Positions 1,849 through 55,750 are shown, numbered from the stretch's first letter. The stretch is 64,000 bases of DNA from Pseudogymnoascus verrucosus (GCA_001662655.1 KV460261.1); one strand, 5' to 3'. Made by a program: numbers and translations. The notes: generated from the letters alone by a model not told the origin.

Positions 1849-4480
1849 CTATGAAGTGACCTTCTTTACTATACCTACAACGATTTCTACGTCTTTTCCC
1901 TCCACAACCAATGTCCCATTCTTAGAAGTGTTCTTTTCAGAGGAGTCTAATAACCAACCAGAAGGCGGAGTTACCACACACTGAGTTCCCCTCGGAACCG
2001 TTACTCGAATCTGCCCTTCACTATTTCCATCTTGTATTCTCAATGACATTTGTATGACACCCGCCACTGTTTTCAAAGTAACATCAACCTCCGACAATCC
2101 AGCAAGCAGCGGCTTAACAGACCATCTCTTCCACCCCGGTTCGAGTGGCGTTAAACCTCCGAGATATTGAGGTAAAAGAAATGTTGGCCAAGTTGACCAA
2201 CCATGAGCAAGCGAAGTGTCGTGTCCAAATGGCTTACCATCGGGCTTCATTGCTTCCCAATGTGCGCCCGAATAATTTTCGTTGGATGGATCTGCCATCA
2301 TGCCCCAGACGTGCTTGATAAGTTTGATTGCCGCTTCAGGATCATTGTCAATAAAATGAGCTTCCGCTGCGAAGCCGGTCGCATAGGGGCTAATAATCTT
2401 TATCCTATCCCAACCTTCGATACCTTGGTAGGCTGTAGGGTTTTCAGTATAGTCAGATGCTAACCGATCCGACTTCGGCGGTGCAATACCAGTCGCAACA
2501 GCGTAGGCGTTCACGTCTTGGCAGATACCTAGTGGATTCGATGTGCAACTCATCTTCATGACTTGTCCTTTCTCGCTCCACATATGCTCATTGATACTGC
2601 GTTTGAGCGGTTCTAAACGGCTTGTATAGCAGTCAGTCATATGAAGCTCGCCGCTCATTGTTGCCATTGAGGCCAACGCCTCATAATACGCCATATTTAT
2701 CTTAGCAGAAGCCCCAAAGATAGGACCACCCAGGGGAAACCAATCCACTGAAAAAGAGTCAGGAAATTATTAAAAGATGGGAGAGTTTGTTACTTACTTG
2801 AAAGCGGCGGTGGCGCAACAACCAAGCCGCGGCTGTCGAGGAACGTCTCGGTGAAATGCAGAAGCTTCTCTAATTTATGCCAAACCCCACGAACAACATT
2901 CTCATCGCCGGTGTGAAGCCAATAGTCCTTGATCGCTGTGATTAGCAACAGTGAATAACTCAGAGAGTAAAATTTGTCGGTTGGTGGCTCTGTATTTTCA
3001 TCATGAAGCGGTGCTTGGGCCGGGGAAAGATTTCCCAAATATCCTCCCTCCATTTGATGGCTTGTTAGTAGGTCAATGCTACCCCGAATAGCCTCAAACC
3101 GGCCTGTCGAATAATAGAGCGATCGTCCCATGACGTATAGATCTCCCCCAAATACAGCGCGATCCCTTTTTGCACCATCTATAGTACAGGGAACCTGGTT
3201 TGTGCCAACGGCAAAATCAACCATCGTGCGTTGCTTATTTTCTGGCAGCAAGTTGTTCTCATATAAAATCTGGCCATCGGTGTCGGCAACAATTAAATTC
3301 CGGTACAGAGCTGTATAGGAAGAGGGTCCACCAAATGCGATCGATCCGGTATTGTTTGCAGCACCACCTAGGAGAGGATGGATGTTCAGGTCGTCCAGAG
3401 TCGCAACCATGTCGCCATCTATTTCTAGAGTTACAGAAGCGCCAATGGTAGAGATCTTTACAGCAATCCAGTTACCCAGATTTTCATCTCCCAATGTCCA
3501 TGACCCCCGAGGTGTGCTTGGAAACACACTGTTGACGTGTGATAACCCCTCGAATGCGGTAACCAAGCGTTTTTCGACATCCAGGGAGAATATGAGTCCA
3601 TTTGCAACCATATGAATCCCCCAGCTTGCGCCCGACTGCTCTATTAAAACATCAAATTGAACTGTTATATCGGCCCAGCGTGTGCCATATCTGCAAGGCG
3701 CCCAATGTTGACCAAAGACTCTTGTACCACTGTCTGTGACTTCCCAGCTTGGAAGCGTTTCTCCTGCCGCCATCGTGCACATCTGGACCGTCCTGACCCC
3801 ATCGTCGTAAATATTGTTCAATGCTTCATCCGAGCATCTAAATGAAGATATTATGGGTGTCTTCTGACGTAAGTCGCGGAATCCAATGACTGAAAATTTG
3901 AGCGTTGATTTGGGTGTCCGTAGGATCAGCTTTTGGTATCTTTGTGACTGTTGGGTATATCTGGCTTCTAGTCTCGTAGGCGCATCGGAAGTCTTGAGTT
4001 TATAACTTTCCCGACGGTACGTGTTCATGGCATTTGAGAACAAGAAGAATGGCCCATCGCCTGTTGTTATTAGCGTCGTCGCTCAGATCGATTGAATGTT
4101 TTTTACTCACCTTGCTCATTACCAATGCCCTCCCGGGTCTCGCTATATATAACATCAAACTCCACAGTCTCATTTTCGCTGGTTGCCGTTGATATTTCAA
4201 AAACAGGTACTCCTCCTTCACATCGTCCATAGTCCAAGATTATCTCCCCAGAGGATTCGTCGACAGTGGATATCGAGATAGGGGTGTAAACGTACCCATT
4301 GAGGAAACTATATCGTTTATCAAAAATAGCGCATACCACCAAGCTATCGTCTGTTTGAGGTTCCGACCAGAAAGAGCAAATATTTGTTAGAAATTCTTGA
4401 GAGCACGGCGTTATTCGGTTGAGCAATGCGATGAGAGGTGATGGCTTGAGGGCGTTTTGGGTGATCAGATGAGACGCCAT
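1849..4480 (-). CDS. alpha-L-rhamnosidase (GH78), 3 exons
   Basis: Exons 4480-4111, 4060-2798, 2747-1849 joined by GT-AG introns; motifs LDYG, DGAKRDR and SLAHGWST. No obvious signal peptide. Confidence 0.9.
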
Positions 4481-4765
4481 TCTCAACCTTTGGCGTGATA
4501 CTCCCACAATGCCTTCATTCGTACCGCGACTTAGGCATTATTAACTATATATTGTAAAACTATAGAGAAAGGGAGATTTGAGCTGTTTGCGTTACTGTTA
4601 ATGGCTGGCGGGGCTTCGTGCTGATAATCCGAAAGATTAACGATTAACTGGGGTCGCTATGGATCTATTTGATGTGAGCGGGACATGATTGGCAGGGGAC
4701 ATCTTCGGAACAACCGAGCGGCCCAGGAGCGAACCCATGACCCTGGTTAGTGGGTAGGGGTAATT

Positions 4766-4891
4766 GTCCACTACTCTATAAGTCCCACCGAATCTCCCTT
4801 GTCCACTTCCAACTGTCCACCTCCGACGGAAAACCACATTCGTCCCTTGCTCCCACTTTCGCCAGTCCGCCAAACCACCACACAAGTGGAC
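4766..4891. promoter_or_regulatory. Four GTCCAC/GTGGAC sites in the divergent rhamnosidase/TF promoter
   Basis: GTCCAC at 4766, 4801, 4815; GTGGAC at 4886. Confidence 0.7.
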
Positions 4892-4925
4892 AAAAATAGT
4901 GACATTGTCACAAAAGCGACCGACA

Positions 4926-7915
4926 ATGCCTCCAGTAGCACTGGAATTAGGCACCTCAACTGCATCGACGGCCTCGTTCGCCTGTCCCCAATGCCAGAGG
5001 AGCTTTAGTCGGAGAGAAAACCTTTCCCGACATCTTAGAACACGTAGGTGAAGCTTTTGTGATACTTCATTACAGCAGTGTTTTCTGCTGAGGTTTATTC
5101 CTTTTTTTTTCAGCTTGGTGCTGTGTGTAGGAGTATTCGATTCGATACAGCACTGAGGTCATACTAGTTTTGGAGCATAGCTCAAAATATATTATATACA
5201 CAGAACGCGTACAACTACTAATTAATTGGTCCTTATAGACCGATCGATAAATACACATTCTTGTTCTATATGCTCAAAAACATTCACCAGAAGCGATATA
5301 CTGAAGAGGCATGAAGCATTACACCTACGGAATGATGACATAACAAATGTGGCCGGCGAAAGTAGCGGAGTCAGTAAAAGAAGAAAAAGGGGCCTGACAA
5401 AAACTGTCATCAATGGCTCTCACTTGAACACACCGCCCGAAAACCACACTGCTCCTTCTGATGCGGTACTTCTTAGGGAGGATCATTCTCCATATGTTCT
5501 ACAACATGGCGCCGACAACATGACAAGTCACTCCATTCAAACCACCCATTCCGACCTTACACTTTCTAGCTCTCTTGAAGATACTCCAACTCAACCTGGT
5601 TTGGAGACATCTGACGCGACTTGGCGTCACGTTGCAAATCTACCGTTTGATTTTTCCTTCCTGGATCCTCCTAGCCCACACGTCGAAGGCAGAAGCATGG
5701 ACAATTGGTTCACAGGAGAATTTTACTCGGCGTTGAACGAGACTGGTATTGGTTGGGATGATGCTGATACATCTCTTGGTCAATCATCGTCAACTGATCG
5801 ATGGAATACAAGCAGAGCCAGGCAGAAACATTCTCAGCACAACAATTATCAGCCCACGAATGGTGCAACCCATGCAACGAGGCTTGCTAGGGCTACGCCG
5901 CGCAATGATCCTGCAGTGGGACATGTAAGTCGAGCACCCTCTCCACCGAATGTGGTGTCCGACGAGGATGGATGGCCGTTCGCTTGGAATCCACGGTCAT
6001 CTCAGGTTCTGAGAACCGAATTGATATCAATTGCCGGCGATGACCCTCTATTTTTGGCTCACGATCCTAAATACAACATTTCTGTTAACACCTATCAAGC
6101 TGTGATCGACTGGTTAGATTGGACACATGATCATCGCCTGGCCGAAAGTTCAACTCCTCTAAATATTCCAAGCTTGGATGTTATCAATCTATTTATCGCA
6201 CTCTTCTTTCGGCATTACCATCCTCAAATGCCTGTTATTCATCTAGCCACTTTGGTGATGGACGAAGATCTCCCTCCGGCCCTATTGGCCTCCATGGTCG
6301 TCATTGGCGCCACATACAGCCATCAAAGGCATACGAGATCATTTACCATTATGCTTCTTGATCGGGTGAGGCGCGGATTGTTGATGAATACCGAATACGA
6401 CCATGGGCTAGTGAGAGAACCTATGATTATCTATGCCTTTCTTCTAGTTTGTCATACAGGGCTGTGGTGCGGGAACAAACGTTCCTTTGAGCTTTCACAA
6501 TCTCTACGAGGGTCTGTGGTGAATTTTTGCCGGCGCAAGGGCTTTGGCAATGATTTTCCGCAAACTCCGATCCTGAATCAGAATAATACAGGAGCTAGCA
6601 GTCTCGAAATTCAATGGAGGGAGTGGGTTTTTGATGAGAGTCAAAAACGACTCTGCTGGGCAGTTTTCATGCTCGACTGCCAGTTCCCAACTCTACTCAA
6701 TTTGCCTTCCACCATTTCGCGAGGCGAATTATCATCACTAGAGTGTCCATGCGACGAAGAGTTCTGGCAGGCTCCATCATCACGACACTGGAAACGCTTA
6801 CTCGGGCCAGCCTCTGTCCCACCATCAATATCTTTCACTACTGCGCTTTCCTCTTTTATTGTGCCTCACATTGCTGATGTCACTGGGCCCGGAGGTTTAC
6901 AGAATGATCGACGAGACTTGCAGCCTGAGCTTTCTCCAATGAAGCTTAACCCATCGAGCCAATTCATTGTGCTTCTTGCGATATTAAGTCAGCTTTATGA
7001 ATATTCTCAAGAAGTAGTACTTGCAGGAAAGATTTGTGGTGGTGATGTTTCGTACGACAATAGAGATGCAAATGACGACTCTACTGTTACCACAGAATTT
7101 CATAGGGACGCCGCGAACCAAATGAGAGAAATGCTAAGTGGTCCTTCAGAGACAGAAGGATGGGCCATCTGGAAGCATCTTGCCAAAAGAAAGATGCAAC
7201 TATTAGGTAACAGGCCCCAACTCCCTTCTTATATTATCACATGTCGCAAAGACGGTTGTACTAACATCCTATAGAATCACTTAACAGATGGAGCGAAACA
7301 TACAATCACTATTCAAAGAATATACCGCGACCATCCAACGCGTTGGATCATTTCCAAGAATCCTCTATCCTGCTCTATAATCTTGGTCGACTACTCCTCG
7401 AGATACCACTCACCGACATTCAGAATGCAATTGGCAAATCTGGGCCTTCAAAGATTCCTGAAGCAATGTCAAAGGTATCAAATTGGGTCAGAATGTCTCC
7501 GCAGTCGCTTGATGCGGCATTGCTATGTATAGAAATAATTGATTCACTCGCACCAGTCAATCACAACTCATCCGCCGACAAACACTCGACTGTGAGGTAC
7601 AGTGTCCACAGCATCATAACTGTCTTCCTCTGCCACATCACTCTTTGGGCCTTCATCAATGTCGCGCGAAGAGAACAAAAACAGGGGCTCATGCATTTGA
7701 TAGAGATTAATGATAAAATAAACTCCGGTCACTTTACTGCGGTAGTAAAGAGGGGTCTAATCGAAAATAGCGAAGATGCCCTGAATTGCATGGTGTCCTC
7801 GTCTGATGCTTCGAGATTGATATTTCGAAGTGCATCAGAGGTCCTCACACGCATGAGTACTTGGGGTGCAGCTTTGGATTTGGCTGTCTTGCTATATAAG
7901 AGAGCCGAAATGTAA
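4926..7915 (+). CDS. Transcription factor with two C2H2 zinc fingers and a fungal-specific TF (Fungal_trans-type) domain
   Basis: Exon 1 4926-5043 (missing from the ORF track) encodes MPPVALE...CPQCQRSFSRRENLSRHLRT; intron 5044-5238; second finger CSICSKTFTRSDILKRHEALH; central FFRHYHPQMPVIH...ESQKRLCWAVFMLD...CPCDEEFW; intron 7207-7274. Confidence 0.9.
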
Positions 7916-8253
7916 TTGAGGCCCATATTATTTCTTCATTTATTATATTAAGAAGATTAAAAAAAGAAATCTGTTGAAATTATTGTTTCGCAATCCACGT
8001 GGGGAAAGAAACTGTTGCAGACCGGATTGAAGTTCCGTCCAGTGACTGTGGTCGGGTGAACGGGCATGTAGCGCCATCGGAAGCCATCGCACCCATGATT
8101 TAGATCCGATATCCTTTCGGCACATCTTACAGCGACAGACTCAATTAAAGTATGAACGAGTGCAAATCATTTCGTAAACATAGCTGCTGCAAAAAGCAAC
8201 GTCTGCTTTAATTGGTACCACTCTGGCATAACATGACGTCCAGCAAGAAAAGC

Positions 8254-8317
8254 GTCCACATAGATGTCCACTTGCGGGCCCTGTAATTGTCCACCTCGGC
8301 CCGTCTTTGATGTCCAC
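8254..8317. promoter_or_regulatory. Four GTCCAC sites upstream of the MFS transporter
   Basis: GTCCAC at 8254, 8266, 8289, 8312; several SYGGRG (CreA-type) hexamers follow at about 8340-8480. Confidence 0.7.
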
Positions 8318-8679
8318 TCGCCGCCTCCACCTCTAGTTGCCCCGCGTGCAGGTTAGCTCGTCTCGATTTCTCCATTTCCTCGATTTCCCCACAAACCCCG
8401 CCTCTGGGGTAGGTTTTGTCTCATCCTTGTTGTATTCCGGGGAGGGTTCTCAATGCAATTCTTCAGTAATTCTCCGCACAGAGCTCTCCCGTGTCTACAA
8501 GTGGCGTTGCTTGGGGGTTGTTCAACGTGACAGTGTAGATGTCAGTTGTGTGCTTTATCAAGGAGCTATATCTGCTGCTGTTCCTACTCCTTATATCTCA
8601 TGTCGACACAGAGAAGGGACTCACATTGAAGCACTCATCTGATCTCTAAGTTAACCCAGCCTCAATAAATCTTTTTACA

Positions 8680-10681
8680 ATGTCAACATCGATAAAGGGG
8701 AAAGACGACACTGTTGTTGAGATGGTGGAGAACTCCCTTTCCAACTCCCCTTCCAACTTGGATCAAAAGGCCGAGGAGCATGAATTTATGGAGGCTGAGA
8801 ACCAAATGACCTTGTGGCAAGCTGCTGTAGCCCACAAGCGTATCCTTCTCTACTGTAAGTTGACCAACCAATACTGTGTATTAACCATATCCGATCCATA
8901 CCTACGTTGGTTGGGCCTTGGGACTACAGCGCTGACATGAGATTCAGGCATTGTGCCCTATCTCTGTGGCATGACTTATGGTTACGACGTTATTGCAAAT
9001 GGAGCGACCCTCGCGATGCCTAGTTTTCTGATCTACTTTGGAGCTTTCGACTCGGCTGGCAATCTTTTTATTCCTTCCATCTGGACCTCTCTATGGGTAG
9101 CTATGACCAACCTTGGCCAAGCCGTTGGCTCTTTCGCCGGCGGCCCTCTTGCACATCGCTTCGGCCGTCGATATGTCATCATGGCCTTCTCCATTGTGAG
9201 CATTGTCGGCGTTTCTCTCCAGTTCACTGCCACAACTAGAGGCATATTGCTCGGGGGTAAAATCATCAACGGCTTTGCCGTCGGTGGGTTACTGGCTGTG
9301 GGAACGACATATGCATCAGAGGTAAGGATGTTCAAAGACCACCGCACAACAGGATCGTTTTTCTAACGAGATAGGTTGCCCCACTTCGTCTACGAGCGCC
9401 AGTTCAGCAGGGCTTGGTCTTCTGCGCAGTAGTTATGCAAGGTTGTGGGTTGGGCGTCATACGAGCATTTGTAACAAGATTGGATCCCGCTGCCTTCCGC
9501 ATTGTGTTCGGGCTTCAATGGGTCGTTGGGTCATTGCCCTTACTTGCATTCTTCATACCAGAGTGAGTGCGGAATCCAAAATACACTCAACCATTCCCTC
9601 TAATTCTCTCCCTCAGATCACCCACTTGGCTTCTTTCTCGTGGTCGCACGGATGATGCAAGGGCCTCGTTGAATCGTTTATACAAGAAGAACAATGTTGA
9701 GTTACGCCTAGATGCGCTACAAGCCACACTGACGGCTGAGACGGCTGGCGAGAAAGAAGGCTCCTTTATCGAGTGCTTTAAGGGCACAAACTTGAAGAGA
9801 ACTGCTACAGTGTCCCTTCTGTTTTTCGGAAGTGGTGGCCTAATCGGCGCGTCTTTCCTGAGTCAAAATATCTATTTCTTGCTTACTGTAGGTCTGGAAG
9901 CTGTGCATTCTTTCGACATTGGCATCGGAGGGTTCTTTTTGGCTTGTGTTGCTATTGCCATTGGCTGGTTTTTTACAGATGTCATTGGCCGAAGAACACT
10001 CTGGCTTGTTGGCGTCTCTGGCAATGCTGTTGCAATGGCGGTGATTGGTGCTCTGTCATTCGATTCCTCGAGGGCTGGACTTTGGGCCATCGCTGTCTTG
10101 ATGTGAGTCGCTAACTTGTTACTTATTCAGTATTGTCTTGAGCGCATAACTAACGTGTCATGTAGGAATGTCCTCATCTCGTTTCAAATCTACACCTGCG
10201 TCTCGACCTCCTGGACTATGGCGCCCGAACTCTCCTCATACCGCTTACGACAACATACCCAATCGTTCGGCTACATCATCCAGGCACTCTCCTCGTGGTT
10301 TTTCCAATTCATCGTACCATAGTTAGTATTCTCCATGTCCTTAAAGTCCCTAGGAGGTGGTTACTGACCTGGGTTTCAAAGCATGTACAACATCGACAGC
10401 GGCAATCTAGGAGCTAAAACCGGATTTGTTTTTGCTGGTACCAGTGTTTTGCTCTTCTGCATCTCGTGGTTCGTAGTTCCCGAGACATCTGGGCTTAGTG
10501 TCGAAGATATTGGTATGTTTATCCCTCTCCTTGCCACGTTCCGAGTCGACGGATCATCATTCACTCCACCAAAAACTACACAGGTCTGCTTGCTAACACA
10601 AACTTTACAGATGCCGCATATATTGATCGCGTATCGCCGAGGAAGTTTCACCTTAGAAGGCAGGCGGCCATTGGAGTGTAA
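8680..10681 (+). CDS. MFS sugar porter (maltose/alpha-glucoside permease-like), multi-exon
   Basis: Motifs YGYD, RFGRR, TYASEVAPLRLR, PESP, IGRR, ELSSYRLRQHT, GNLGAKTGFVF, VPET; about 7 exons; last exon 10611-10681 ends in TAA. Confidence 0.9.
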
Positions 10682-11158
10682 ATGGGGCCATAGTGTAGTT
10701 TATATAATATACGCCCTTTGATCTATCATACTTAATCCTTCCGTACACTTGGAGAAAATCAATACACTTTACAGGCAGCCAAAGAATAGCGTGACGTGTG
10801 AATGTGATCATAGGAACAAGCACCCAAACCACGAAGGATATTCACATGGGTGATCAGCATGGCAGTAAGATATTCAAAGGGTGTCTTAATTTAATTTCTA
10901 TATGGCTTCATTAACTCCGGTCACATAACGTTCTACGGTTTGTACAACTCATTACTTCAACCATATATACTGTAAAGGGTTTACTGTCTTTCTAATGCAG
11001 AACAAAACTGCAGAAAGATAACACTTTCGAGACATTACCAACTCGTAAGCCGCCCCTACCAGCCAGCAAGCACGGTTATGCTGTTACCCTTAAGTGAAAT
11101 AGCGACATTGTCTCCTTCCGTTTATAATTGATAACATCTTTGAATATAAATATGTAAC

Positions 11159-12398
11159 CTAAAAAATGACGAATTCTAGCTCCTTTTGCAACCCTTCAAG
11201 CTGCTTCTCATCCCATCCAGTCAAATCTCCAGCTTCCGGCACAACCACCCACTCAAATGGACTTCCTGTCCCTGTGAGGACTTCTCCTATTCCACCTCCG
11301 TTCGCGAAAACATAATACTTCGCAGCTACGCTATGGACCGCACACCTCCATTCCGACTCAGCTGGTATGAAAACCGTCTCCATGCTCCCCACTATGGTTT
11401 GCTTCCCATTAATAACAACGCTCAGTAAGCCCTCTATGACTTGTATAACATGGTGCGTCTTCTCGAACTTAAATGTCGTCTTCTCGAGTCCCTTCCCATC
11501 GTGCAACTTCGAGCCCTCGACACAATATATCGAAAACTTGCCATCTGACTCCTTTCTTGTGGCAAGAGGTCGCACAATTGTGCCACCAGTAGCGAATTTT
11601 GGACCGGTGTCTGCCTTGAGGAAATATCCTCCAATCTCGCACACCCCCGGGAGTTGGGATTCCGTACCATCCCAGGGTTGTGGGTCGAAAGAGGCCTTCT
11701 CGCGCACGGGAACCATATCAAATTTATCGGTTGCAGCGATGAGTTTGGGGATGAGGACTTCGAATGGGGAGCGTGAATCGTGGGTGGGGAAAAGAGGCCC
11801 TGAAAAGGGCTCGCCGACGAAGCGGAAAAACTAGGCAATGAATTAGTTGCACGTAGTTTAAGAACAATGGGAGATTCTAGGGGGTTAGATGACTGGAGAG
11901 ATTTCAGGCAGTGCTGGATATTGGAATCTAGTTGACAAGGGCACATACTTCTTCCCAACCACCGGGGATTATAAGCCCCACGAACTCAGTGTGAGCAGAT
12001 GCAATTTGGTATTGATGGACTGTGTTCTACATTGAATTAGCGATGTATAAAAAAATAGAATGAAGAATAGTATATCAAAGACGACTCACAGGTGGCACGC
12101 TTGCAAAATCTCCTGGACCCAAAGATCTCGCAGAATCATTCGCCCAAACGTTAAGCGTTCCCTTTAAGCAGAGAAACACATCGTGTGCCTCTCTGTGATA
12201 ATGGAAACCAATTGGGTTATCAAACGTTCCGCCAGTGCCAACAACAGCAAATGCGTTGCTTGTCTCTTTCGCTGTTGCGAGGAGGCGCATGGTACTCTTT
12301 GAGGTCGGGATAGTCCATAGCTCCCCAGTAAAGCAAGGGAGTTTGTATGGAGTAGACGAGCCCGGAGGCGTAGTGAGAGTTGGAATCGATTCGGACAT
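11159..12398 (-). CDS. Quercetin 2,3-dioxygenase (quercetinase)-like bicupin, 3 exons
   Basis: Cupin motif 1 GFHYHREAHDVFLCLKG, motif 2 GDFASVPP/NTVHQYQI, then GLIIPGGWEE-FF; second cupin with VFIPA and GGGIG. Exons approx. 12398-12090, 12026-11950, 11830-11159. Confidence 0.8.
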
Positions 12399-12597
12399 GG
12401 CTTTAGTGTAGTTAAATTAATTTCAAATAAAAGTTTGGTATGAGACTCCAGAATCTCGGCTCTACTTATTATTTTGTAGAGTATGCGAGATTCAATCGAA
12501 GGTCAAGAGTACTCGCACCTATATTCGTCAACGCTGTCATGGCCCTGTGGTCTTCGGGTTTCGGGGCTTCGGGACCCTTGATTTCTGATAGACCAAT

Positions 12598-12718
12598 GTG
12601 GACTACCACCATCTGCACCCCCGTCCAATGCCAAGCAAATAGATTTATGTCCACTTCTGGGATTCCCACCACAGATGTAACAATGTGGACTACCCCCGCA
12701 AATCGTCTAGATGTCCAC
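12598..12718. promoter_or_regulatory. Four GTCCAC/GTGGAC sites in the divergent quercetinase/esterase promoter
   Basis: GTGGAC at 12598 and 12685 (both within CAATGTGGACTAC); GTCCAC at 12649 and 12713. Confidence 0.7.
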
Positions 12719-12945
12719 CTTCAAGCTCGACGCTTCACCCCCAGCAACGGCAATTGTCACGGCAGTCTGAACCTAATGCACGCCAGTCGTCTGTTATACA
12801 TCTATTCGCGTTTAGTTTATATAATTTATGCGACTCTTTTTGGTCAGTGAGAGAAGCTGTCCCGAAATTTGGTCTCTTAATGAAGCAAGTCCCATGATAC
12901 TGACTTTATCGTTAAAATAATTCGATCTGGCCATCCTCGAGCGCT

Positions 12946-13968
12946 ATGGATACCATCGCGAAATTTCCGAGCAAAGCAATTGCTTCTATTTTTATGCCAA
13001 CAGTGGAAGCTTTCAAGCCCCTCCTTCTGGCGAATAAATCCGAGATTCTTTCAGTTCCTTCAACAACTTACACCTATGGACAACACAAACGGCAACAATT
13101 AGACGTATACGAAGAATGTACCAATTCACCATCTTCACCCATTATCCTCTTTTTCTACGGCGGCGGGCTTAACAGAGGCGACAAAATTATGCCTCTCGTC
13201 CCATCATCGCTAGTCTATCACAATTTCGGTGCCTTCTTCGCCAAGAGGGGCTTCACCATGATAGTTGCCGATTACCGTCGAGTCACTGATGTAGCCCTGG
13301 GCACAGGCGAAGATGCCGTTTTCCCATCCGGAGGCGAAGATGTGAGAGCCGTCTTAGACTGGCTCGAATCCACGTATCTACCGTCTTGCGGTGATAAGGC
13401 CCAAAAGAAGCGCGACGTCTTTCTCATGGGCAATTCTGCAGGTGGTGTACACGTTTCTACGTATCTCTTGGATGCGCGTTTTGAGAATCGGAGATATGCG
13501 CTCCGACAATCTCAACTCTGTTCTTTACGCGGCGCTGCATTAATAAGCGTCCCTTTCGATTTTAAGGCGGCGACCCCTGACCGATCCGAGATTCTTCAGA
13601 CTTATTATCCTCCACATTTATCTGGCACGCAGCAAGAATCATCTCATGATCTGTTCTGTCCAAATGGTCTCCTGCGAGCTTTGAAGACCAGAAAGGAATC
13701 AATGGGGACGCTTGAGATTGCACGTAACGGTATGCCGGATATTTTGGTGACGTTGGGGGAATTTGATCCCGAGGATGAAATTGTCGAGACGAACGATCGA
13801 TTTTTTAGTTTATGGGATGACTGTTTTGGGAGCGGACAGGGAATAGAATTGAAGCGGATGGGAGGACACAATCATATTAGTCCGCCATTCTCGTTGATGT
13901 GTGGTGATAAAAAGGCAGAAGAATGGGCAGAAAATGTGGTTGAGTGGATGAAAAACTTGCAGAATTGA
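12946..13968 (+). CDS. alpha/beta-hydrolase (HSL/carboxylesterase-like)
   Basis: FFYGGG oxyanion motif, ADYR, GNSAGG nucleophile elbow, GEFD and GHNH; single exon, 340 aa. Confidence 0.9.
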   Translation: MDTIAKFPSKAIASIFMPTVEAFKPLLLANKSEILSVPSTTYTYGQHKRQQLDVYEECTNSPSSPIILFFYGGGLNRGDKIMPLVPSSLVYHNFGAFFAKRGFTMIVADYRRVTDVALGTGEDAVFPSGGEDVRAVLDWLESTYLPSCGDKAQKKRDVFLMGNSAGGVHVSTYLLDARFENRRYALRQSQLCSLRGAALISVPFDFKAATPDRSEILQTYYPPHLSGTQQESSHDLFCPNGLLRALKTRKESMGTLEIARNGMPDILVTLGEFDPEDEIVETNDRFFSLWDDCFGSGQGIELKRMGGHNHISPPFSLMCGDKKAEEWAENVVEWMKNLQN

Positions 13969-14159
13969 AAATGAGATGGTCGAAAATACTATAGATTAAG
14001 ATTATTATGCAATATCTTAGACTAGAGTTTTAATAAAGCATAGCAAAATTTAATCAAGTTCATGGTAAAGTGCTTTTGCATCTCCCTAGAATACTAACTT
14101 GTCACTTCTAACATTCGAGTTGCCCTCGGAACATCCTTCTTTGCCGGCCTCGGCGTCAT

Positions 14160-14200
14160 GTCCACTTCCCGTCCACGCTCAATCCGCTCAATACGTCCAC
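14160..14200. promoter_or_regulatory. Three GTCCAC sites upstream of the FAD monooxygenase
   Basis: GTCCAC at 14160, 14171, 14195; CCCCAC/CCCCGC (CreA-type) repeats follow at about 14244-14335. Confidence 0.65.
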
Positions 14201-14674
14201 TTACATAAAGGCGAAGAAGGCTAGATCATGACCTTCTTAGCACCCCACGATCTCCCCACAAACTCCCCACAAACCCCACACCCTCTACGTACTCATCTAG
14301 ACCAACCCGGGTGGTTCGGTGCTAACTTCCCCGCTCTGCGGGGTAATCTATGCATTATCCGCCGGGGGAGCTTGCTGGAGCTCGACGACGGCTGGATAAG
14401 TAAACATATGGTCAGCAGCGGATGGTGGATCGTGAGAGCATGGGAGCTTTAGGGTTTTGGATAGTACGCCAAGTATTTATGCTCGGCATTCTTGTTCGGC
14501 ATCATCACCGCGACCCCTCATATTTGTATTCATTTTGCCCTTGTTGTTTTCACTGTAGCTTTTCTCGAACTTGGGATAAGGAACACAGCACCTTACATAT
14601 TCGACAAATATATTTCAGCCTGTCTTGGACGTGAACCGGCAAGCAAGCCCAGGACCGTTGTGTAAGAATAACCC

Positions 14675-16306
14675 ATGCCTCACCTCCAAATAATCGTCGT
14701 CGGCGCCGGGCTGAGCGGCCTCAGCACAGCGATCGCATGCACAATCTCCGGCCATTCCGTTACCGTTATCGAATCGGCATCTGAACTACAAGAGGTAAGT
14801 TCCCCTCAATCCTTCAACAGATTATATCTTTCAAACCCGCTAATTGTTCCACAAGGTAGGCGCAGGACTCCAAGTAACACCAAATGCCACGCGCCTCTTG
14901 AAAAAATGGGACCTCCCCGCCTCCTTCTGGGCCACAGCCGCCGAACCAACATTCCTGGCTGTGCATAGATACTCTGATGGCAAAGTATTAGCCATGGAGA
15001 AAGATTTCAATACAAAGATTCGCGACAAGTACGGTGCATCCTTTCTCGATTTCCACCGCGTCGATCTGCAACTAGCCCTATACCAGCGCGCCCTCGCCCT
15101 CGGTGTTAAATTCGAGTTAGGCCAAAGGGTGCAATCAATCGATTTTGACCTCCCACAAGTTACCACAGCTTCCGGGGCGAAGTTCTCATCGGATCTTATT
15201 GTGGCTGCCGACGGACTGTGGTCGCAAAGTCGAAATTGCTTTCTGGATGTCAAAGACGCGCCTCTACCAACCGGTGATCTGGCATATAGAGTTGTTCTGT
15301 CATTAGACGATATTGAAGACCCTGAGCTGAGAGAATGGGTGAGCAACCCATCGGTGCATTTCTGGATTGGTCCAGGAGCTCATGCTGTTGGTTACTCGGT
15401 GCGTGCGGGGAAGATGTATAATATCGTCCTACTTGTTCCGGATGATCCTCCAGAGGGTGTTAGTCGGCAATCTGGTTCGGTGGAGGAAATGAAGGTCCTT
15501 TTCAAAGACTGGGATCCTATGTATGTCACAGATCTCTACATGCTTGATAACGCAACTGGACATCGACTAACTAACCCTTTAGCCTCACGCGATTCCTAAA
15601 CATAGTGCAAACGGTTGATAAGTGGAAATTAATGCACCGTACGTATATCAATCCTGAGCTCTGTTACTCTCTCTAACTCACTTCATAGGAAGCGAGCTAG
15701 ACTCCTGGATCAACGACAAATCAACCTTCGTCATGGTGTAAGTACCCCCCACCTCCTCCTATATCCTCATTTCTAACAGTAAAACAGCGGCGACGCATGC
15801 CACCCTATGCTCCCCTACCTCGCCCAAGGCGCCAACTCCGCCCTCGAAGACGGCGCCGTCCTCGGCCATCTCCTAGGCAAAGTTAAAACCCGTAGCCAGG
15901 TACCTCGAGCCTTGAAATTATACGAACAGTTGAGGAAAACTCGCGGCGAGGCGGTTGTGAGGGAGACGTTTAAACAGGTATTTTATTTACCCCCCTCCCC
16001 CTTCCGCGATCAAAGATGGATGTCCCTGCTTACGAGTTTTCCACTACAGCGCGAGTCTTTCCACATGCCGAATGGCCCGGACCAGGAGGCTAGAGATGAA
16101 TTATTTCTCTCGCAACTGGAGACTGGACTTACAGGGGAACCATTTCCTAGTAGATGGTAAAGCAGCTTTTTCAATTCTCTTCTAATTTTCGAACTAATTT
16201 TATCGATAGGACATGCCCTCAAGTTCAACCCTGGTTGTATAGCTACGATGCATATGAGGAAGCTGAAAAGGCATGGACCTCAGGCTCTAATGCTGAAGTA
16301 CTATAG
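14675..16306 (+). CDS. FAD-dependent aromatic monooxygenase (salicylate hydroxylase-like, group A flavoprotein), multi-exon
   Basis: VVGAGLSG, EVGAGLQ, ADGLWS, GDACHPMLPYLAQGANSALEDG; last exon TCPQVQPWLYSYDAY...TAG at 16304-16306. Confidence 0.9.
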
Positions 16307-16572
16307 TCCTTAGTAATCAGTGCCCGGCCTAGATCTAGGGAATTTACTTTCTTAATAGGAATATTTATTAGTATACAAAATATATTTACAGGCTTGTTGA
16401 ATATGTTCCAGCCTAACCACTAATATTACTCATTTGTAGATGGGCCTATAAGGACACAGGGCACCACTTATAATAAATAGGATATAGGAGTGCAAGTCAG
16501 ATAGGTTGTAGTATAATCCTATAGGTCTACTATAAAGGATATAAAAAAGATAAAGGGGGATCGCAATCATGA

Positions 16573-16830
16573 TAACGCGTTTCGTCACCGAGCGGCACAC
16601 TTTTCCCGCGTGGTCCCCTCTTCCAATTTCCACACACTATGCCTCTATAACAAACAATGGCATTCCAAACCTAAGAAGGATCATCTCAGCCATCGAAGCT
16701 ATCCGATCATCAATAAAAGTAAGCATCCGAAAAGACTATACGCTATACGAGGTACCTGAAACATCCGTCCGCCTCAAAATGAACGGCCAACCCCCTGGAG
16801 CTGAGATCCGCACCAATGGAGAGATCTATC
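16573..16830 (+). mobile_element. Degenerate 5' fragment of a second pogo/Fot1-like element
   Basis: TA then ACGCGTTTCGTCACCGAGCGGCACAC (TIR-like), followed by a psq-HTH-like peptide AIEAIRSSIKVSIRK...LYEVPETSVRLKMNG; no catalytic domain follows. Confidence 0.6.
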
Positions 16831-17470
16831 GCAAGATCTGGTTGGATCCGTGAGGCGTGATGGCTAACTCAGCTGAATTGGGTAGAGTATATATATGTTC
16901 CGGCCCAAACATATATATATCTGAAATTTAAAAAAGAACTTGAATCTCCCCACGAGAGCATAGAATTGTGACATTCTAAATAAGGAATTAAATGTATTTA
17001 ATGCTCCGTGCATACACGGCCGGTTGAGTCGAGATTCGTGCTCAGAATGATGTCAGATGCTCAGTTGGAGGTCAGTTGCAGGTCAAATGGGCACCTGACG
17101 TCACTCTGATAGAAGCCGCCATCAGGCCATATTTAACATCCTGAGCAGGGCTACTATGTAATAAGGGGAGAGTTACGCAATGGCAGTTTTTTGTAATTCT
17201 CTAAATTTTGATTAGTAGCATATGCTTTTGTTACTAGCTCATTTTCCGTTCGGGATTGTGACGCAATAATTACACCCTTTCACCATAATTTGGCACGGCG
17301 AAATGGAGCGGTGGCTAGAAGAAAAGAGAGGCGCGAGGACCTACCATGGTAGTGTAGTCGGATATTTAGCAATGGCTTACATATATTGATAGCACAGCGC
17401 CATGCTTTATCGTCCAGCTAATCTCATTCTTGCTCAGATAAAGTTTCCTCTGATAATTGCAGCCTGCAAT

Positions 17471-19559
17471 ATGTCTACTCGATCGCCCATGCCATCTTTT
17501 TTTATTTTATGCTTACTTCTCTCAATAATTAACGGTAAATCCTTTGAGATTATCTTTATAGATAAATAGTATTTAATAGTTATTACAGGAAATATTATGT
17601 TTCCGGGACGTTCGCCTATGGACGTAGTTGCTGTGGTTGACCCTGCCGCTGCTAACTTGGCCGCTTGGAAACGAGCAACTATGCAAGCACCAAACAATTA
17701 TGCTCCCGCAGCTGTCGATTGTCCCTCGACACGACCGACGATAAGACTTGCTGGATCGCTCTCAGACAACGAGACAGCTTGGTTAGAAGTTAGGCGAAAC
17801 AACACGATTTGGGCAATGCGGAACTTCCTTGGACGCGCAAACATCACAGGACTTGATACCAATGCCTACATCGACAACATTGCTCGTAACGCTAGTGAAT
17901 TACCAAACATTGGCATTGCCATCTCTGGTGGGGGTTATAGGGCCTTGATGAATGGTGCCGGCGCTCTTGCAGCGTTTGATAATCGGACTACAAACTCAAC
18001 CAATCAAGGTCAACTGGGAGGCCTTTTACAAGCTACAACATATTTAACTGGACTGTCTGGAGGTAGCTGGCTAGTTGGAAGTCTCTATGTCAATAATTTT
18101 ACGTCCGTACAAGATATCATCAATACGGGTTCCTTGTGGCAGTTCGATAATTCTATTCTTAAAGGTATTACTTCAGCTTGAGAGAACTATTTTAGGCTAA
18201 TAGATGGTCTGCAGGACCAACTACTTTAAGTACCACAGATTACTACAACACTCTTTACAATGATGTCAATAGCAAAGCCGACGCTGGGTTTAACACTACA
18301 ATCACGGATTACTGGGGACTTTCTTTGTCTTTTCAGTTGGTCAACCCTACCAATGGCGGTCCAGGTATGGAAATGATATATGGTTAAGTGCATAGCCTTA
18401 ACATGCCGCAGCTTACACCTTCTCATCTATCGCCGATGACCCAGGATTCGCAGCTGCCAATGAACCCATGCCTATCATAGTCGCTGATGAAAGAGCACCT
18501 GGCCAACTACTAATCCCCGCCAATACCACCATATACGAATTTAACCCCTGGGAAATTGGGACATTTGATCCCACGACGTTTGGATTTGCCCCTCTTCGTT
18601 ATGTGGGCTCCAATTTCAGCGGCGGTGTTCTCCCTCCCAGCGAAGCATGTGTCCGAGGCGTTGACAACGCTGGCTTTGTTATGGGGACGTCATCTTCGCT
18701 TTTCAACCAGCTCTACCTAACGGTTAATGCGACATCTGGTGTTTCAGACAGAGTTAGGAGTTCAATCAGCAATATTCTTCAAAATGTTGGTGAAAGCAAC
18801 AGTGATATCGCAGACTGGCCGAACCCGTTCTATGGTTATAATAACAAGACGAACCTGAACTCTCAGAGCAAGAGTCTGACTCTCGTGGATGGCGGCGAGG
18901 ACCTTCAGAACATTCCTCTCCATCCTCTACTTCAACCGATCCGCCACGTTGATATTATCTTTGCAGTTGACGCCTCAGCTGACACTTCTGCGAATTGGCC
19001 AAATGGCACCGCAATGGTGGCGTCGTTTCAACGGTCACTTAACACCTCGCTGGAAAATGGCACGGTATTTCCGTCTATCCCAGATCAGAACACTTTCATC
19101 AATCTAGGACTGAACACCCGTCCGACGTTCTTTGGATGCAATGCCAGCAATATGACTGGACCAAGTCCTCTCATAGTGTATCTGCCGAACCATCCATATG
19201 TATACTACTCGAATGTCTCAACCTTCGACCTGAGCTACAATAATACGGAACGCAATAATATCATCCAAAATGGCTACGATGTAGCTACGATGGGCAATGG
19301 CACTGTGGATGAACAGTGGCCTACATGCGTGGGATGTGCAATTCTATCCAGAAGCCTGAGTCGGACTGGGACCAACGTTCCTGACGTCTGTGCTCAATGC
19401 TTCAATAGGTATTGCTGGAATGGTACTGTCAACTCCACTACACCAGCTCCATATGAGCCAATCACTGTTCTCAAGGTTAGTAGTAGTGTGAGTCTCGTTA
19501 GATATATCCCCTTTACGCTTGTAGTAGTATTTAGTACATGTCTACTTTTAGTATTTTAA
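17471..19559 (+). CDS. Lysophospholipase / phospholipase B, secreted and probably GPI-anchored
   Basis: Short first exon with hydrophobic signal ([11 protein letters not shown]); SGGGYRA, GLSGGSW and VDGGED motifs; hydrophobic C-terminus; introns near 17534-17588, 18164-18213, 18363-18410. Confidence 0.93.
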
Positions 19560-22500
19560 GTCATAAGAATATAATCTATCTTAATACATGCTACCAAAGC
19601 CTGCGACCACCAGTCATGCTGCTGTGGCGCCACGTTGCGCGTCGAATACACAAGAGTGGTTAATTGATTTGGCACTTGAGGCAACATGGGGTGGGGTATA
19701 CGCTCTAATGCCGAGCTGGGAAATGTTTTGTATTTATCCCATTTCCTCACAGCAGTCATATCGTCGCTCAAAATCAGAACTCGGGGTGGGGGGGTGGAGG
19801 AGACGGCGAGGAGGGCGTATCCGTATCGCGGGGTTGTGGGGGGGAGAGGGTGGTGGTGGTGTATGGATATGATATTGGGAGGTGGGCATTTAAGAGGTTA
19901 AGAGGGGGAGGAGGTGGGGTTGAGGATTGATTCTGGGTGGGGGGGGGGAGAGGGAATCGTGGCGTCTGGGGATTCTTAGTCCCGTGCTGGTCTTGTGGTG
20001 TGGGATTTGCCTAGAGGGGGGAGGGGTGTACGTTTTCATTCATGCTATGCTAAGCTGAAGCACTTATAAGGCGGAGTGAACGGCGTAGACCCAGTTCTCA
20101 TCTATCCGGGATCGTGTCCGTAGCTATTTAATTTATATAGCTTTATATAAAAGTAGTCCGAATTTTTAAAAATAGTTCAGCTATAAAAATAAGAAATTTC
20201 GTCAATTTTGAAATGAAACTTCATAACTGTCTCTATATTTAATAATAACTGCGGAGAGGATATAATATAACCGTGCCTCTCATGTCATTAACTTCTAACA
20301 GTGATGGTTGTGCCTACAACAGCCACTGATTCCACTCTGGGCCAGGAAATAGGCCTGTCTTCCATCTCGATACAACCACCAAGATATTATACACGCATGC
20401 CAACTACAAGTCGAAATTCGCACCACCCACCCACATCCACATACCTTTAATCAAAATTTACCATATCATCCCCTTCCCCTCCATCCATCTCTAACAGCGA
20501 TCGACACACACCGCAGCACATCGGCATCCCCAAAATTTAACCTCCGCGCCAAGATGCCATCAACCAAGCTTCAAATTACCCGCCGCCTCCGCCATCCCCC
20601 GCAAACTGGCTTCAGTGATATATTATATTACTGGTATATCACTCCCGACTCTCGACGTCGTATAAGAAGTTTTCGACTTTTTGTATTAGTATATCAGTAT
20701 TCAGTATATCAGTATAGCACCACTGATTACTCACACTTGAATATCTGCTCTCTGCTCCCTCTGTGGATTAGACGTCCGATCTCTCGACAGATACAGCAGC
20801 GCAGTACAGCTCGTCGCACGTGGTTAAAATGACAGACCAACTCCCTCAAAAGCGTCGAGACATACAAAACCTCCGGAAAAACCTCGTACGCCCCCGTTCC
20901 ACCCCTCTATCCCCCTTTTCCTCTCCCCCTCCCAACCCCGCCCCCCCCCTTCCATACCATCCCAACTTTACCCCCCCAACAGAAAGAAGAAACCACCCGT
21001 CTCGCCACAGTGCACACCGCCCCAGTAGAGAACGCGCACACGCAGGTCGCAGAGATGGAGACAGATAGAGTAGTCAGTGAGGCGAGAGAGAAGGAGGAGA
21101 AGAGGAGGAAGAGGAATAGGAGGTTGAAGCCGTGGATTGATAGGATGATGGGGATTGGATGTGCTACTTAGCTGTGTTTGGGGTTGGGGGGGGAGGGGCG
21201 GGTGGGTTGGGCTTGGGGGGGTTATTTGTGGTTTGGGGAAGGGTTGAAGAAGGAGGGAGGAGGGAAGGGGGGTGTTGGGAGGAAAAGGGGGGGGGGGGGG
21301 TTGATGTTTGGGTTTCATATGCGATGGGCGGTTGAGGTTGAGAAGTCGAGGGTTGAGTTGGTAGAGAGAGGGGGGAGGAGTTATCCAAGACACAGTTATC
21401 AGACTCGGAGATGCAATATCATCAACCATCATGAGGGTGTTTGTTTCCATGCCGAACTATCCGTTTATACCATCCCAAGTACCCTTTGCGCGATTACCAC
21501 TTCATATTCTATCCAGCACCCATCATCATCATAGCCATCACCATGGCCAGACCATTCCATACCCCACGACCCCAGCACCGGCACTGAGGCATTTGCACCC
21601 CCATTCCAGTTTGCGGGGTTTTCGCCCTCCTCGGCGTGCCGTCTCTGCCGCTCTTCCATCTCTCTTGGCACCTTCTACGCGTGGGGGGCACACTACTTAC
21701 CATCACCGTCTCACTCATCGCGTCACGATACTGTTTGGTGCCTGCATACAACACTTTGCCAACGGCTACAACGGACCTGACACAGTGGCGGTGCAACGTC
21801 GCCAAGCTGTCTGGACCCGTATGTATGTATGTGTCGATCCTTCGTGGCGCGGCGTGGTGGTGGGAGTGGGGCGTCTGTGACTAGACGGTCTGGCGGCGGG
21901 AGGGGATAGCACGGGGATAAGCCGTCCTTCCTTCTACAGTGTTGAGCAGTGGATGCATGGCCGGGGTTGAGCACAGGAGTGGAGCACAATAGAAGAAGAG
22001 TGAAGCACTTCCGCGGCTTCGTGGGGGTTTTCCTCCACCCAAGAAAGTCTCTCGTCGGGCAGGATAGAACCGCATCAGTCCGCGCCAAGACGGCGAGCTG
22101 AACAGAACAGCAGTAAACGGGGTGAAAGCAGTGGGGAAAGCTCGGATGCGAGACGCGGATTGGGAGGGAGACGTTCAGCCTTGTGGTCAGTGCTATCGTT
22201 TGTGCATTGCTGGTGCGAGCTGTGGGGTGTGGTGTTGCATCGAGAGGTGCTGCGCCACGGGGACTATTGGATGTGGATCGCGGTGGTGGGTGTTGGGGGC
22301 TAAACGGACGGGGATGGGGCGATGTGATGGGTTGGATGGATGGGGGGTGGGAGTGTGGTGATGTGATGGGTTGGCGTGGATGGGTGGGGGAATTGAATGT
22401 GATGGGCTGGGTTAGGATGGATGTGAGTGAGTGGGAGTGTGATGGGACATGATGGGCAGTGATTGATTGATGCGTGCAGGGAAGTCTCCGTGCAAGGAAG

Positions 22501-24544
22501 TCTCCGTGCAGGGGTAGTGGTGCAGGGCTGTAAGACAGTGCAGGGGTATTGCTACGCCGCAGGAAGCGAGAGTCACGAGAGACGGGGAGTCAGTTTTGTG
22601 TTCGGTGAGGACGGACAGACGGGGAAGGAGAAGGAGATGGGGTACGGGAGGGTGAGGATTATGACGCGGTGATGGATACCGTGGGTGGGTGGTGCGGGAG
22701 GAAGGGGAAGGGACGGAGATAGGGACGGGGAAAGGAGGAGGGGGAGAAGACAGATCTTTACCATACAAACGTAACCCATCACCCCGGTTTCAAGGGAAGA
22801 AGAGGGTGGAAAGACGGAGAGATGTGACGTGCGTGGGTGTGTGCGTGCTTCATAAATTCCATGAAGCAGCGACGTGTGCACGTACAGTACTCACCGAACC
22901 CAATCCTTCCAACCCCGAATCCCAACGGAGAAGGAAGGAGCAGAACAAAACACGTGCCGCCTCAATAAGTGGTAGACAAGTTATGTAAGCTGTTCGTGAT
23001 CAGACGCGATAGGACAAGTCGATCCCTCACCGGTCGGTCGCCGCTATCTATCCCCCCGACCCCGACTCCCACCCCTGCCATCCGTGCATCCGTGCATGTA
23101 CTAACCCCCTAACATAGCAATCCGATTCGTTGGAGTCCATTTTAAGCTCACCGATTCCGTTTACGCTTTTCTGGATTGGGGTTGGCGAGGGGTGAGGATC
23201 GAGTACGAGGGTGTACCTTTATTGTGGGTTAAGAGAGGCTGTTGCCTGGAATCTGGTGCTGCTTGAAGGGGATGGGTGGATGCGTAATGGGGGACGCAAT
23301 GGTGGAGGGAACTGCGTATGCGTTTGTGATGGGATGGGGATGGGGATGGGGATAACGTTTGGAGTGGGATGCGGGTGGGAATGTGGTGTGCCTTACTCTT
23401 GTTTGCGTGGTGGGAATGCTTGGTTGTGGGAATGGGAGTCTTGGTGGTGAACTTTGTATGGTGGTGGTAGTGGTTTGTGGTTTGTGATTTCGTCACTCAA
23501 GTCGTGATGTTATGGGCGGCGGCTCCTTCTGTCACTCCGAGTGTCAGTGCGCGTGTCAGTACGACGACCGATACGAGAGTTGTGCAAGGACCAGCCAGCT
23601 GTGCCTGTCCCTGCGCGACTTGTTACTTTTGCATACTCGCACACGCCAAAGGGTACTTCCACCACTACTCACTCCCCACGAAACACCTCTTCTAGGCTTC
23701 ACTATTTCCCCCTTCGCTCCTCGTTCCTCGTTCCTCGCTCCAAAAATACCCAATCCATCCATAAATAAAACTCACCTCTATTTTACCCCCATCCCACATC
23801 CTGATTTAATTATCGTCGCCTAATTATCGAATTCAATTCCTGCCCATTATACAATTACCCATTTATTCCCCTCATATCCCTCATCCCTCAACCTCCAAAG
23901 TCACTTCCTCAGCCCTCACCACCTCAATCACCACAAACTGCGCCAAACACCATCGAGGGTTTCGAGGGTCTCGACTCCGTACTTAAATGCACGTCCGCCT
24001 CCACTCTTTTTCCTTTCCCGTCTCCACCTCCAACGCCCATCACCAAAAAAACACCAAAATCGTGACTCCGCGCTAAACAGGTACAAACTGTACCTCCCAC
24101 CACCCACCACCTCTCGCCGTGACGTCCCCACTCGCGTCAACACCGCCCCGCTCACCTTGCTGACTGCTGCCTAATCCACCACCACCATCCAACTTCCACC
24201 CTTCCAATCCATCCTCTCCAAACTCGAATCTCTCTCCCTCTCTCCTCTTTCGAACACCGTGTTTGCCACTCACGAAATCATCGTTAACATCCCTCACAAA
24301 CAAGGCCATCGATTCAACTGCTTTATCGTTATTTATCTCGTTCTTCGCCGCGTTGGCCGCCCATCTCACCCAATTCGCTTTGTTCTTTTCACTTCCAGCA
24401 AACTCAACACCAACAACCCCGACATCTCCGAGAGCCTCGTTTCTGCCTGCCACCACCACCCGCGATTTACATTATTTACGTGAAAACGCCTTTATCCTGC
24501 CTGCTGGCTCAGCTTGCCTGGGGTCGCGAGTCTAAAGGCTGATT

Positions 24545-24940: not shown

Positions 24941-24987
24941 TCTGCTCGCCGTCAATTCATCAGACGTGTCCAATAAGATCGCCCACG

Positions 24988-55692: not shown

Positions 55693-55750
55693 GAAGACTG
55701 GAAGACTGGAAGAACTGGAAGAACTGGAAGAACTGGAAGAACTGGAAGAG
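55693..55750. repeat. GAAGA(A)CTG 8-9-bp tandem repeat
   Basis: About 6 consecutive GAAGACTG/GAAGAACTG units. Confidence 0.8.

Follow-up and report, generated by a model that had tools for sequence, protein, structure and literature searches.

In Aspergillus nidulans, the alc, qut and prn genes are controlled by AlcR, QutA and PrnA, autoregulated pathway-specific regulators of the Zn2Cys6 type that recognize CGG/CCG-type sites. Two further described systems involve C2H2 zinc fingers, namely Adr1 of Saccharomyces cerevisiae, a two-finger activator of catabolic genes with the site TTGGRG, and the carbon catabolite repressor CreA/Mig1, with the site SYGGRG. Here, we analyze a gene cluster within a 64,000-nucleotide stretch of Pseudogymnoascus verrucosus DNA (GCA_001662655.1, KV460261.1; the whole stretch is called the window below), which is fungal in character, with intron-containing genes. 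The element under study is the hexamer GTCCAC (GTGGAC on the opposite strand), which is repeated in the intergenic regions between positions 4766 and 14200, and for which we propose the cluster's own C2H2/Fungal_trans regulator as the probable binder. As in the A. nidulans clusters, the gene of the regulator is part of the cluster itself, and one short site is repeated in every promoter, the regulator's own and the divergent ones included; unlike in those clusters, the regulator is a C2H2 protein. The design, a pathway-specific self-regulating factor with clustered sites, is therefore a known one, here with a C2H2 protein and a site that, like the regulator and the cluster themselves, is undescribed in the full-text literature searched (subscription journals and supplements lay outside the scope of that search).

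We counted GTCCAC and GTGGAC on both strands of the whole window by pattern search. The total of 31 sites is close to the mean of dinucleotide shuffles (32.15 ± 5.79) and, therefore, there is no window-wide excess of the hexamer. Fifteen of the 31 sites fall into four groups (strand of each site as + or −):

4766..4891: site group 1 (4766+, 4801+, 4815+, 4886−), located between the divergently oriented GH78-like and regulator genes
8254..8317: site group 2 (8254, 8266, 8289 and 8312, all +), upstream of the gene for the transporter of the major facilitator superfamily (MFS)
12598..12718: site group 3 (12598−, 12649+, 12685−, 12713+), in the divergent bicupin/esterase promoter, with alternating orientation
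14160..14200: site group 4 (14160, 14171 and 14195, all +), upstream of the flavoprotein monooxygenase gene

Each of the four intergenic regions thus holds three or four sites; two of the regions are divergent promoters, and together they serve six genes. The group 1 sites lie at −160 to −40 relative to the regulator ATG (4926), those of group 2 at 369–427 bp 5′ of the transporter ATG (8681), and those of group 4 at 481–516 bp 5′ of the flavoprotein monooxygenase ATG (14676).

To put numbers on this arrangement, we defined a group as at least three sites within 150 bp and placed 31 sites randomly in 100,000 trials. At least one group arose in 6.6% of the trials and at least two in 0.2%, whereas four groups arose in none of the 100,000. 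In addition, no 6-mer is as strongly enriched as GTCCAC in the four intergenic regions (taken as 2,384 bp) relative to the other 61.6 kb (15 occurrences versus 16 elsewhere, 24-fold, binomial p = 4e-16), and longer words containing it behave likewise (TGTCCAC, 10 versus 4; TGTCCACT, 7 versus 1). It is the grouping, not the total count, that carries the signal, and the clustering is far beyond chance. A preliminary description of this DNA had listed these 15 sites in all four cluster promoters, where roughly one was expected, and had noticed only scattered single copies elsewhere. Every coordinate and strand that it gave proved correct, the expectation for about 2.4 kb at uniform composition is about 1.2 sites, and the other 16 sites of the window are all singletons. 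Its proposal that the sites mark the regulon boundaries holds as well: no GTCCAC occurs in the flanking intergenic DNA, either between the flavoprotein gene and the next gene (16161–17569) or below the rhamnosidase gene (1530–1848).

One could still ask whether the grouping is a functionless product of chance, base composition or duplicated promoter copies. The agreement of the window-wide count with the shuffles would fit such an origin, as would the fact that two of the 15 sites (12598 and 12685, in group 3) fall within the copies of a 24-nt direct repeat (12587–12610 and 12674–12697, 83% identical), with one GTGGAC site per copy (CAATGTGGACTACC). This repeat looks like a local duplication that added one site to the bicupin/esterase promoter. 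Beyond it, however, the four regions have only the motif and short flanks in common, and the random placements never yielded four groups. Moreover, of the 18 hexamers that differ from GTGGAC by one base, none shows clear enrichment in these promoters (the best, GTGGAT, reaches 2.0-fold at an uncorrected p of 0.05), and the motif recurs in promoters of relatives that cannot be aligned with one another, as shown below. We consider a functionless grouping hardly credible, and the GTCCAC motif almost certainly a functional cis-element.

The regulator gene and the region encoding its fingers are as follows:

4926..7915, + strand: regulator gene (exons 4926–5043, 5239–7206 and 7275–7915), encoding 908 amino acids with two C2H2 fingers and a Fungal_trans domain
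4983..5324, + strand: DNA-binding region, with finger 1 at 4983–5043, completed at 5239–5240 across a conserved intron, and finger 2 at 5262–5324

The product is VE01_09039 of P. verrucosus (100% identity, length 908). Both fingers show the pattern C-X2-C-X12-H-X3-H (CPQCQRSFSRRENLSRHLRTH and CSICSKTFTRSDILKRHEALH, joined by the 7-residue linker RSINTHS); precomputed Pfam matches on the identical protein are PF00096, PF13894 and PF13465, and Fungal_trans (PF04082) is present with E = 3.5e-24 (score 85.7 bits, cut-off 23). When solved structures were searched with the complete regulator, all hits were generic finger proteins, headed by the designed protein Aart; the structure of the Adr1 finger pair (2adr) also matched, with E = 4.5e-10. 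The recognition helices are RRENLSR in finger 1 (Arg−1, Asn3, Arg6) and RSDILKR in finger 2 (Arg−1, Ile3, Arg6), the same contact residues that the preliminary description had read from the sequence.

Searching with regulator exon 2, we found close orthologues in other Pseudogymnoascus (65–92% identity) and more distant relatives (30–48%) in other Leotiomycetes, some Sordariomycetes and two Penicillium species, with the finger helices kept in the alignment as RRENLSR and RSD(I/L)LKR. A scan of metagenome contigs with the regulator alignment added 36 loci. Eleven of these (L001–L011, where L004 is the same sequence as L005) encode regulators 33–43% identical to that of the window, and 21 of the remaining 25 (L016–L036) encode Adr1-like regulators, which differ from the cluster regulator in their helices (RLEHLKR and RRDLLLR). 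Where the contact residues of the relatives were found, they are Arg−1/Glu2/Asn3/Arg6 in finger 1 and Arg−1/Asp2/(Ile, Leu, Met)3/(Arg, Lys)6 in finger 2, and the intron within finger 1 lies at the same place.

We inferred the regulator ATGs of these loci by following the open frame and by consulting annotated relatives for their N-termini, which placed the start in six distinct relatives (L001, L002, L003, L005, L008 and L009; 34–39% identical). Within 400 bp upstream of these starts (215 bp in L002), GTCCAC occurs twice each in L001, L002, L003 and L009, once in L008, and not in L005. Five of the six distinct relatives thus carry an upstream site, and the 9 sites in 2,215 bp compare with 1.1 expected at uniform composition. 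The preliminary claim that the regulator's own promoter contains sites, four of them in the window, therefore extends to distant fungi. An enrichment analysis of orthologous promoters had been suggested in the same description, and we ran it as a 6-mer count over the relatives' regulator promoters and two GH78 upstream regions, with the window excluded and 283 kb of other fetched DNA as background. GTCCAC ranks first among 1,641 6-mers, with 16 occurrences in 3,964 bp versus 100 in 283 kb (11.5-fold, p = 2.5e-12). Since no two of the relatives' regulator promoters have a 15-mer in common, it is the motif that is conserved, and not the surrounding sequence.

The gene neighborhoods of the relatives point in the same direction. 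A GH78 orthologue adjoins the regulator gene in L001 and L002 (in tandem) and in L009 (divergently, as in the window), with 58% (L002) and 54% (L009) identity to the window gene. Three sites lie directly upstream of GH78 in L002, and in L001 four sites lie between GH78 and a divergent gene for a related MFS transporter (43% identical over 160 residues). The regulator promoter of L003 keeps its sites although the neighbors are unrelated, housekeeping-type genes (CENP-L, DUF4139). Groups of at least three sites within 150 bp were found in only 3 of the 36 loci, namely L001, L002 and L003. As a negative control, we used 14 loci of Adr1-like regulators (13 non-redundant), which contain 0 sites in 5,598 bp upstream and no GTCCAC groups. 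Taking the window and the five relatives together, motif and regulator gene are found side by side in six of the seven distinct loci, and no other regulator gene is conserved there. This conservation at distant relatives of the regulator supports the central proposal of the preliminary description, that the motif is the predicted cis-element of the cluster regulator. We assign a probability of roughly 0.7 to the reading, made from sequence comparison, that the cluster's own C2H2/Fungal_trans regulator binds the GTCCAC sites.

Pooling the promoter sites (n = 31; 15 from the window and 16 from relatives) reveals a fuller motif, which on the G-rich strand is A-[A/G/T]-GTGGAC-[A/G]. Of the 31 sites, 25 have an A at the second base 5′ of GTGGAC and 27 have a purine directly 3′ of it; C is nearly excluded from the base between the 5′ A and the core (1 of 31), and the sixth base of the core is C in all 31. 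As its single-base variants show no clear enrichment, the site has the sharpness needed for genome scans for further targets. Its oligonucleotide form is given here:

AAGTGGACA: oligonucleotide form of the site

We also considered a pattern in which the sites would be distal (−200 to −500) at target genes and proximal at the regulator gene. It was dropped because mapping of GH78 exon 1 in L001, L002 and L009 places several target-gene sites about 20–290 bp from the start.

The position of the sites relative to the genes bears on whether the word acts in DNA at all. Several sites are near start codons (−30 to −76 in L003 and L008, −40 at the regulator gene of the window), and one site of L001 overlaps the start codon, as might be expected if the word acted in RNA, as an element of the 5′ untranslated region. 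Other sites, however, lie up to about 500 bp 5′ of the start codons, and both orientations occur within single and divergent promoters. In the window as a whole, 11 of the clustered sites are in plus and 4 in minus orientation, and orientation is mixed in the relatives too, as expected of a site read in duplex DNA rather than of an RNA element. We judge an RNA element to be very improbable.

How well the fingers account for the site is a separate question. By the C2H2 recognition code, finger 2 (Arg−1, Asp2, Ile3, Arg6) reads GTG and finger 1 (Arg−1, Glu2, Asn3, Arg6) reads GAG. The preliminary description had used this code to link the regulator to the motif, and its argument stands insofar as the predicted GTGGAG matches GTGGAC at five of six positions, with three of the four Arg–G contacts as well as the Asn–A and Ile–T contacts in place. 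It does not stand insofar as GTGGAG itself occurs at background level (1.0-fold). The mismatch falls on a normally reliable contact, and similar modules of Aart also pair Arg−1 with G. Given the mismatched Arg−1 contact and the background level of GTGGAG, the code is therefore weak support, and what carries the argument is that the motif goes wherever the regulator gene goes in most of the loci compared.

Several observations weigh against the cluster regulator as the binder, and we collect them here. Arg−1 of finger 1 should read G by the canonical code, as it does in Adr1 and in the designed modules, where all 31 sites have C, and the predicted GTGGAG is not enriched (5 in 6,431 bp of promoters versus 262 in 345 kb). 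The information of the motif spans about 9 bp, which is beyond what two fingers normally read; this span and the invariant C are the unusual points of the motif. L005 (the same sequence as L004) has no upstream site. Some sites lie within the inferred N-terminal coding sequence of the regulators (L001 at 9916, 9959 and 10009; L003 at 9941; L008 at 730), so that not every site need be regulatory. In L001 (9914–10014), one of them overlaps the start codon (ATGTCCACC, encoding M-S-T) with two more within 100 bp, these three being the group flagged at that locus, and the L003 and L008 sites encode a conserved QVDS; such sites may be regulatory, constrained by the protein or due to chance. Finally, the relatives' promoter sets were fixed after the site positions were known, although the sets follow gene boundaries and include the site-less locus, and the two regions taken as GH78 upstream DNA partly consist of GH78 exon 1. 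Regarding L005, an ORF resembling RNase H/RVT (831–1358; a retroelement) stands directly upstream of the regulator gene, and the promoter may have been disrupted by it; an initial assignment of this ORF as an upstream GH78 gene was rejected for the same RNase H/RVT-like character.

As an alternative, GTCCAC could be a real cis-element whose binder is some unlinked transcription factor, acting on the catabolic genes and on the regulator gene alike. In favor of this, the sixth base contradicts the canonical reading of finger 1, GTGGAG is not enriched, the information spans about 9 bp, and no factor has been described for a GTCCAC site in the literature searched. Against such a factor stands the co-occurrence of motif and regulator gene in six of seven distinct loci, including L003 with its unrelated neighbors. 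Likewise, the G-rich strand, the three well-placed G's and the A opposite Asn3 are the preference expected of this finger pair, and these loci have no other conserved regulator gene. We regard an unlinked factor as rather unlikely, and the cluster-encoded regulator as the preferred binder.

Comparison with the two described C2H2 systems helps to place this regulator. Like Adr1, it has two N-terminal classical fingers with Arg−1/Glu2 and Arg6 in finger 1 and Arg−1/Asp2/hydrophobic3/Arg6 in finger 2, and, as for Adr1, there are several sites per promoter, in both orientations, at catabolic genes. Unlike Adr1, it carries a Fungal_trans domain and has Asn3 (reading A) in finger 1 where Adr1 has His3, and the cluster site ends in C instead of G. 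The likeness to CreA/Mig1 consists of a G-rich hexamer read by two C2H2 fingers, and the code-predicted GTGGAG would itself be a CreA-type site. GTGGAC, in contrast, is outside SYGGRG because the last base of the latter must be G. We rejected GTCCAC as a CreA/Mig1 or Adr1 site, given the final C in 31 of 31 sites and the 1.0-fold level of GTGGAG. Separate SYGGRG sites are present at 10–11 per kb in two of the four promoters (groups 2 and 4), compared with 5.1 per kb window-wide. This roughly doubled density suggests that catabolite repression is probably a second, independent input.

The same two promoters share a second element, TCCCCACAAAC(C/T)CC, located 70–100 bp 3′ of group 2 (once, 8378–8399) and of group 4 (twice, 14245–14277). 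In the whole window, CCCACAAA occurs only in those three places. Four copies of CCCCAC lie within 14243–14279, among the CreA-type SYGGRG sites of the group 4 promoter. This element may reflect catabolite repression or a second regulator.

Besides the regulator, the genes served by the four site groups are as follows:

1849..~4477, − strand: GH78-like alpha-L-rhamnosidase gene in three ORF pieces, ATG at about 4477, no obvious signal peptide
8681..10721, + strand: MFS sugar-transporter gene (Pfam Sugar_tr), ATG at 8681
11159..12398, − strand: bicupin gene, quercetin 2,3-dioxygenase-like, ATG at 12398, no signal peptide
12946..13968, + strand: alpha/beta-hydrolase esterase gene (Pfam BD-FAE, Abhydrolase_3; PDB esterase 4zrs, E = 7e-20)
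14676..16160, + strand: FAD monooxygenase (flavoprotein) gene, ATG at 14676 (8gsm, E = 3e-50; 8x38, E = 3e-41)

The GH78-like product has both the six-hairpin and the C-terminal domain of the family (Bac_rhamnosid6H, 27.7 bits against a cut-off of 24.5; Bac_rhamnosid_C, 39.9 bits against 22.1); its solved relatives 8hmm and 8iwd are weak matches (E = 7e-8). The C-terminal half of the bicupin matches the Bacillus quercetinase YxaG (PDB) with E of about 1e-8. Its N-terminal domain contains HYHREAHD and scores 26.5 bits for Cupin_2, just under the cut-off of 27.2, and its relatives are called quercetin dioxygenase-like by automatic sources only. The closest solved relatives of the FAD monooxygenase are decarboxylating 4-hydroxybenzoate and vanillate 1-hydroxylases. 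Beyond the FAD monooxygenase gene lies an unrelated lysophospholipase gene.

Expression of part of the cluster can be seen in a close relative. In the transporter gene (four introns, with joints at 9562/9617, 10102/10166, 10321/10382 and 10511/10610) and in the bicupin gene (two introns, within 11830–12090), X15 contigs are spliced at GT..AG (CT..AC on the minus strand), and another contig of this run covers part of the regulator gene. These contigs show that the regulator, transporter and bicupin genes are transcribed there, and they confirm several introns; none of the 24 runs listed for the stretch is recorded as RNA, but X15 behaves as such. Contigs of two further runs, X8 and X19, extend over the entire cluster at about 4% and 8% divergence. 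Among the differences listed for the runs of four relatives over 4450–14449 (40 of 1,060, and 12 of 70 indels), none falls in the core hexamers of group 1, from which we conclude nothing.

The gene set fits a described catabolic route. As described in two papers, rutin is converted to quercetin, then to a depside, and then to protocatechuate and phloroglucinol carboxylate (PMC7663156, PMC4462102). The steps of such fungal and bacterial quercetinase pathways appear to be matched here by a glycosidase, a quercetinase-like bicupin, an esterase, a decarboxylating hydroxylase and a sugar-type transporter. As points of difference, the bicupin resembles the intracellular Bacillus type and has no signal peptide, and “cluster 32” of Aspergillus flavus has a Zn2Cys6 regulator (PMC7663156). 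A Sclerotinia preprint mentions an uncharacterized C2H2 regulator gene, Sscle07g059580, twelve gene numbers away from Sscle07g059700, the gene for quercetin dioxygenase; the motif discussed there, WWCCCCRC, is another one. For flavonol glycoside catabolism, no cluster regulator is described in the full-text literature searched. Judging from these assignments, the cluster probably breaks down plant flavonol glycosides.

Regarding the binder, activation, the inducer and the substrate, we infer the following mechanism. Several regulator monomers would bind the three to four sites of each promoter, and the bound regulator would switch six genes together: those for the GH78-like rhamnosidase, the regulator itself, the MFS transporter, the bicupin, the esterase and the hydroxylase. 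A flavonol glycoside, or a compound released in its breakdown, may be the trigger. Import of the glycoside would fall to the transporter, and the GH78-like enzyme and the bicupin would act on it inside the cell, as the lack of obvious signal peptides in both suggests. The esterase and the decarboxylating hydroxylase would complete the route, so that the six genes could plausibly import a flavonol rhamnoside or rutinoside and degrade it down to simple phenols. The position of the group 1 sites suggests autoregulation: sites in the regulator's own promoter may give feedback on its expression, of either sign.

The comparison across loci indicates which part of this circuit is shared. The conserved core is the regulator and the GH78-like enzyme, together with the transporter in L001, and Pseudogymnoascus appears to have extended it by the bicupin, esterase and hydroxylase. 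However, in Bisporella sp. PMI_857 (1,208,385 bp), Cadophora sp. MPI-SDFR-AT-0126 (2,982,448 bp) and Cadophora gregata (2,197,371 bp), both the regulator and the bicupin have relatives on contigs of equal size, which are probably the same contig in each of the three genomes; the link between regulator and bicupin may therefore be wider than Pseudogymnoascus. At the edge of the window's cluster, separated from the GH78-like gene's 3′ end by about 300 bp, lies an intact-looking ORF (3–1529, 508 aa) for a transposase of the Tc5/pogo type with DDE_1 and HTH_Tnp_Tc5 domains, which runs off the window start. Elsewhere in the window, strand composition swings strongly and locally at 22001–26000 (GC skew of +0.19 and then −0.30 at 22–26 kb) and at 54001–58000 (GC skew of +0.41 at 54–56 kb and AT skew of +0.30 at 56–58 kb).

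A broader proposal can be made, which we hold tentatively and at somewhat less than even odds. The site A-D-GTGGAC-R and this regulator family may form an undescribed circuit across Leotiomycetes, other classes and a marine contig, in which a single C2H2 protein is coupled to a transporter and a GH78-like glycosidase of intracellular type and, in Pseudogymnoascus, to an entire pathway of flavonol cleavage. Since the base facing it is invariably C, finger 1 would then be a natural exception to the rule that Arg−1 reads G. An invariant C where the code predicts G offers programs that predict from the recognition code a small but clean test.

These findings leave current ideas intact, since grouped sites are what one would expect for a self-regulating factor encoded within its cluster. 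What the locus provides is a concrete and testable regulon, with a candidate binding site, for an uncharacterized family of fungal C2H2 regulators, and a candidate gene set for the use of flavonol glycosides by cold-soil Pseudogymnoascus and its plant-associated relatives among the Leotiomycetes.

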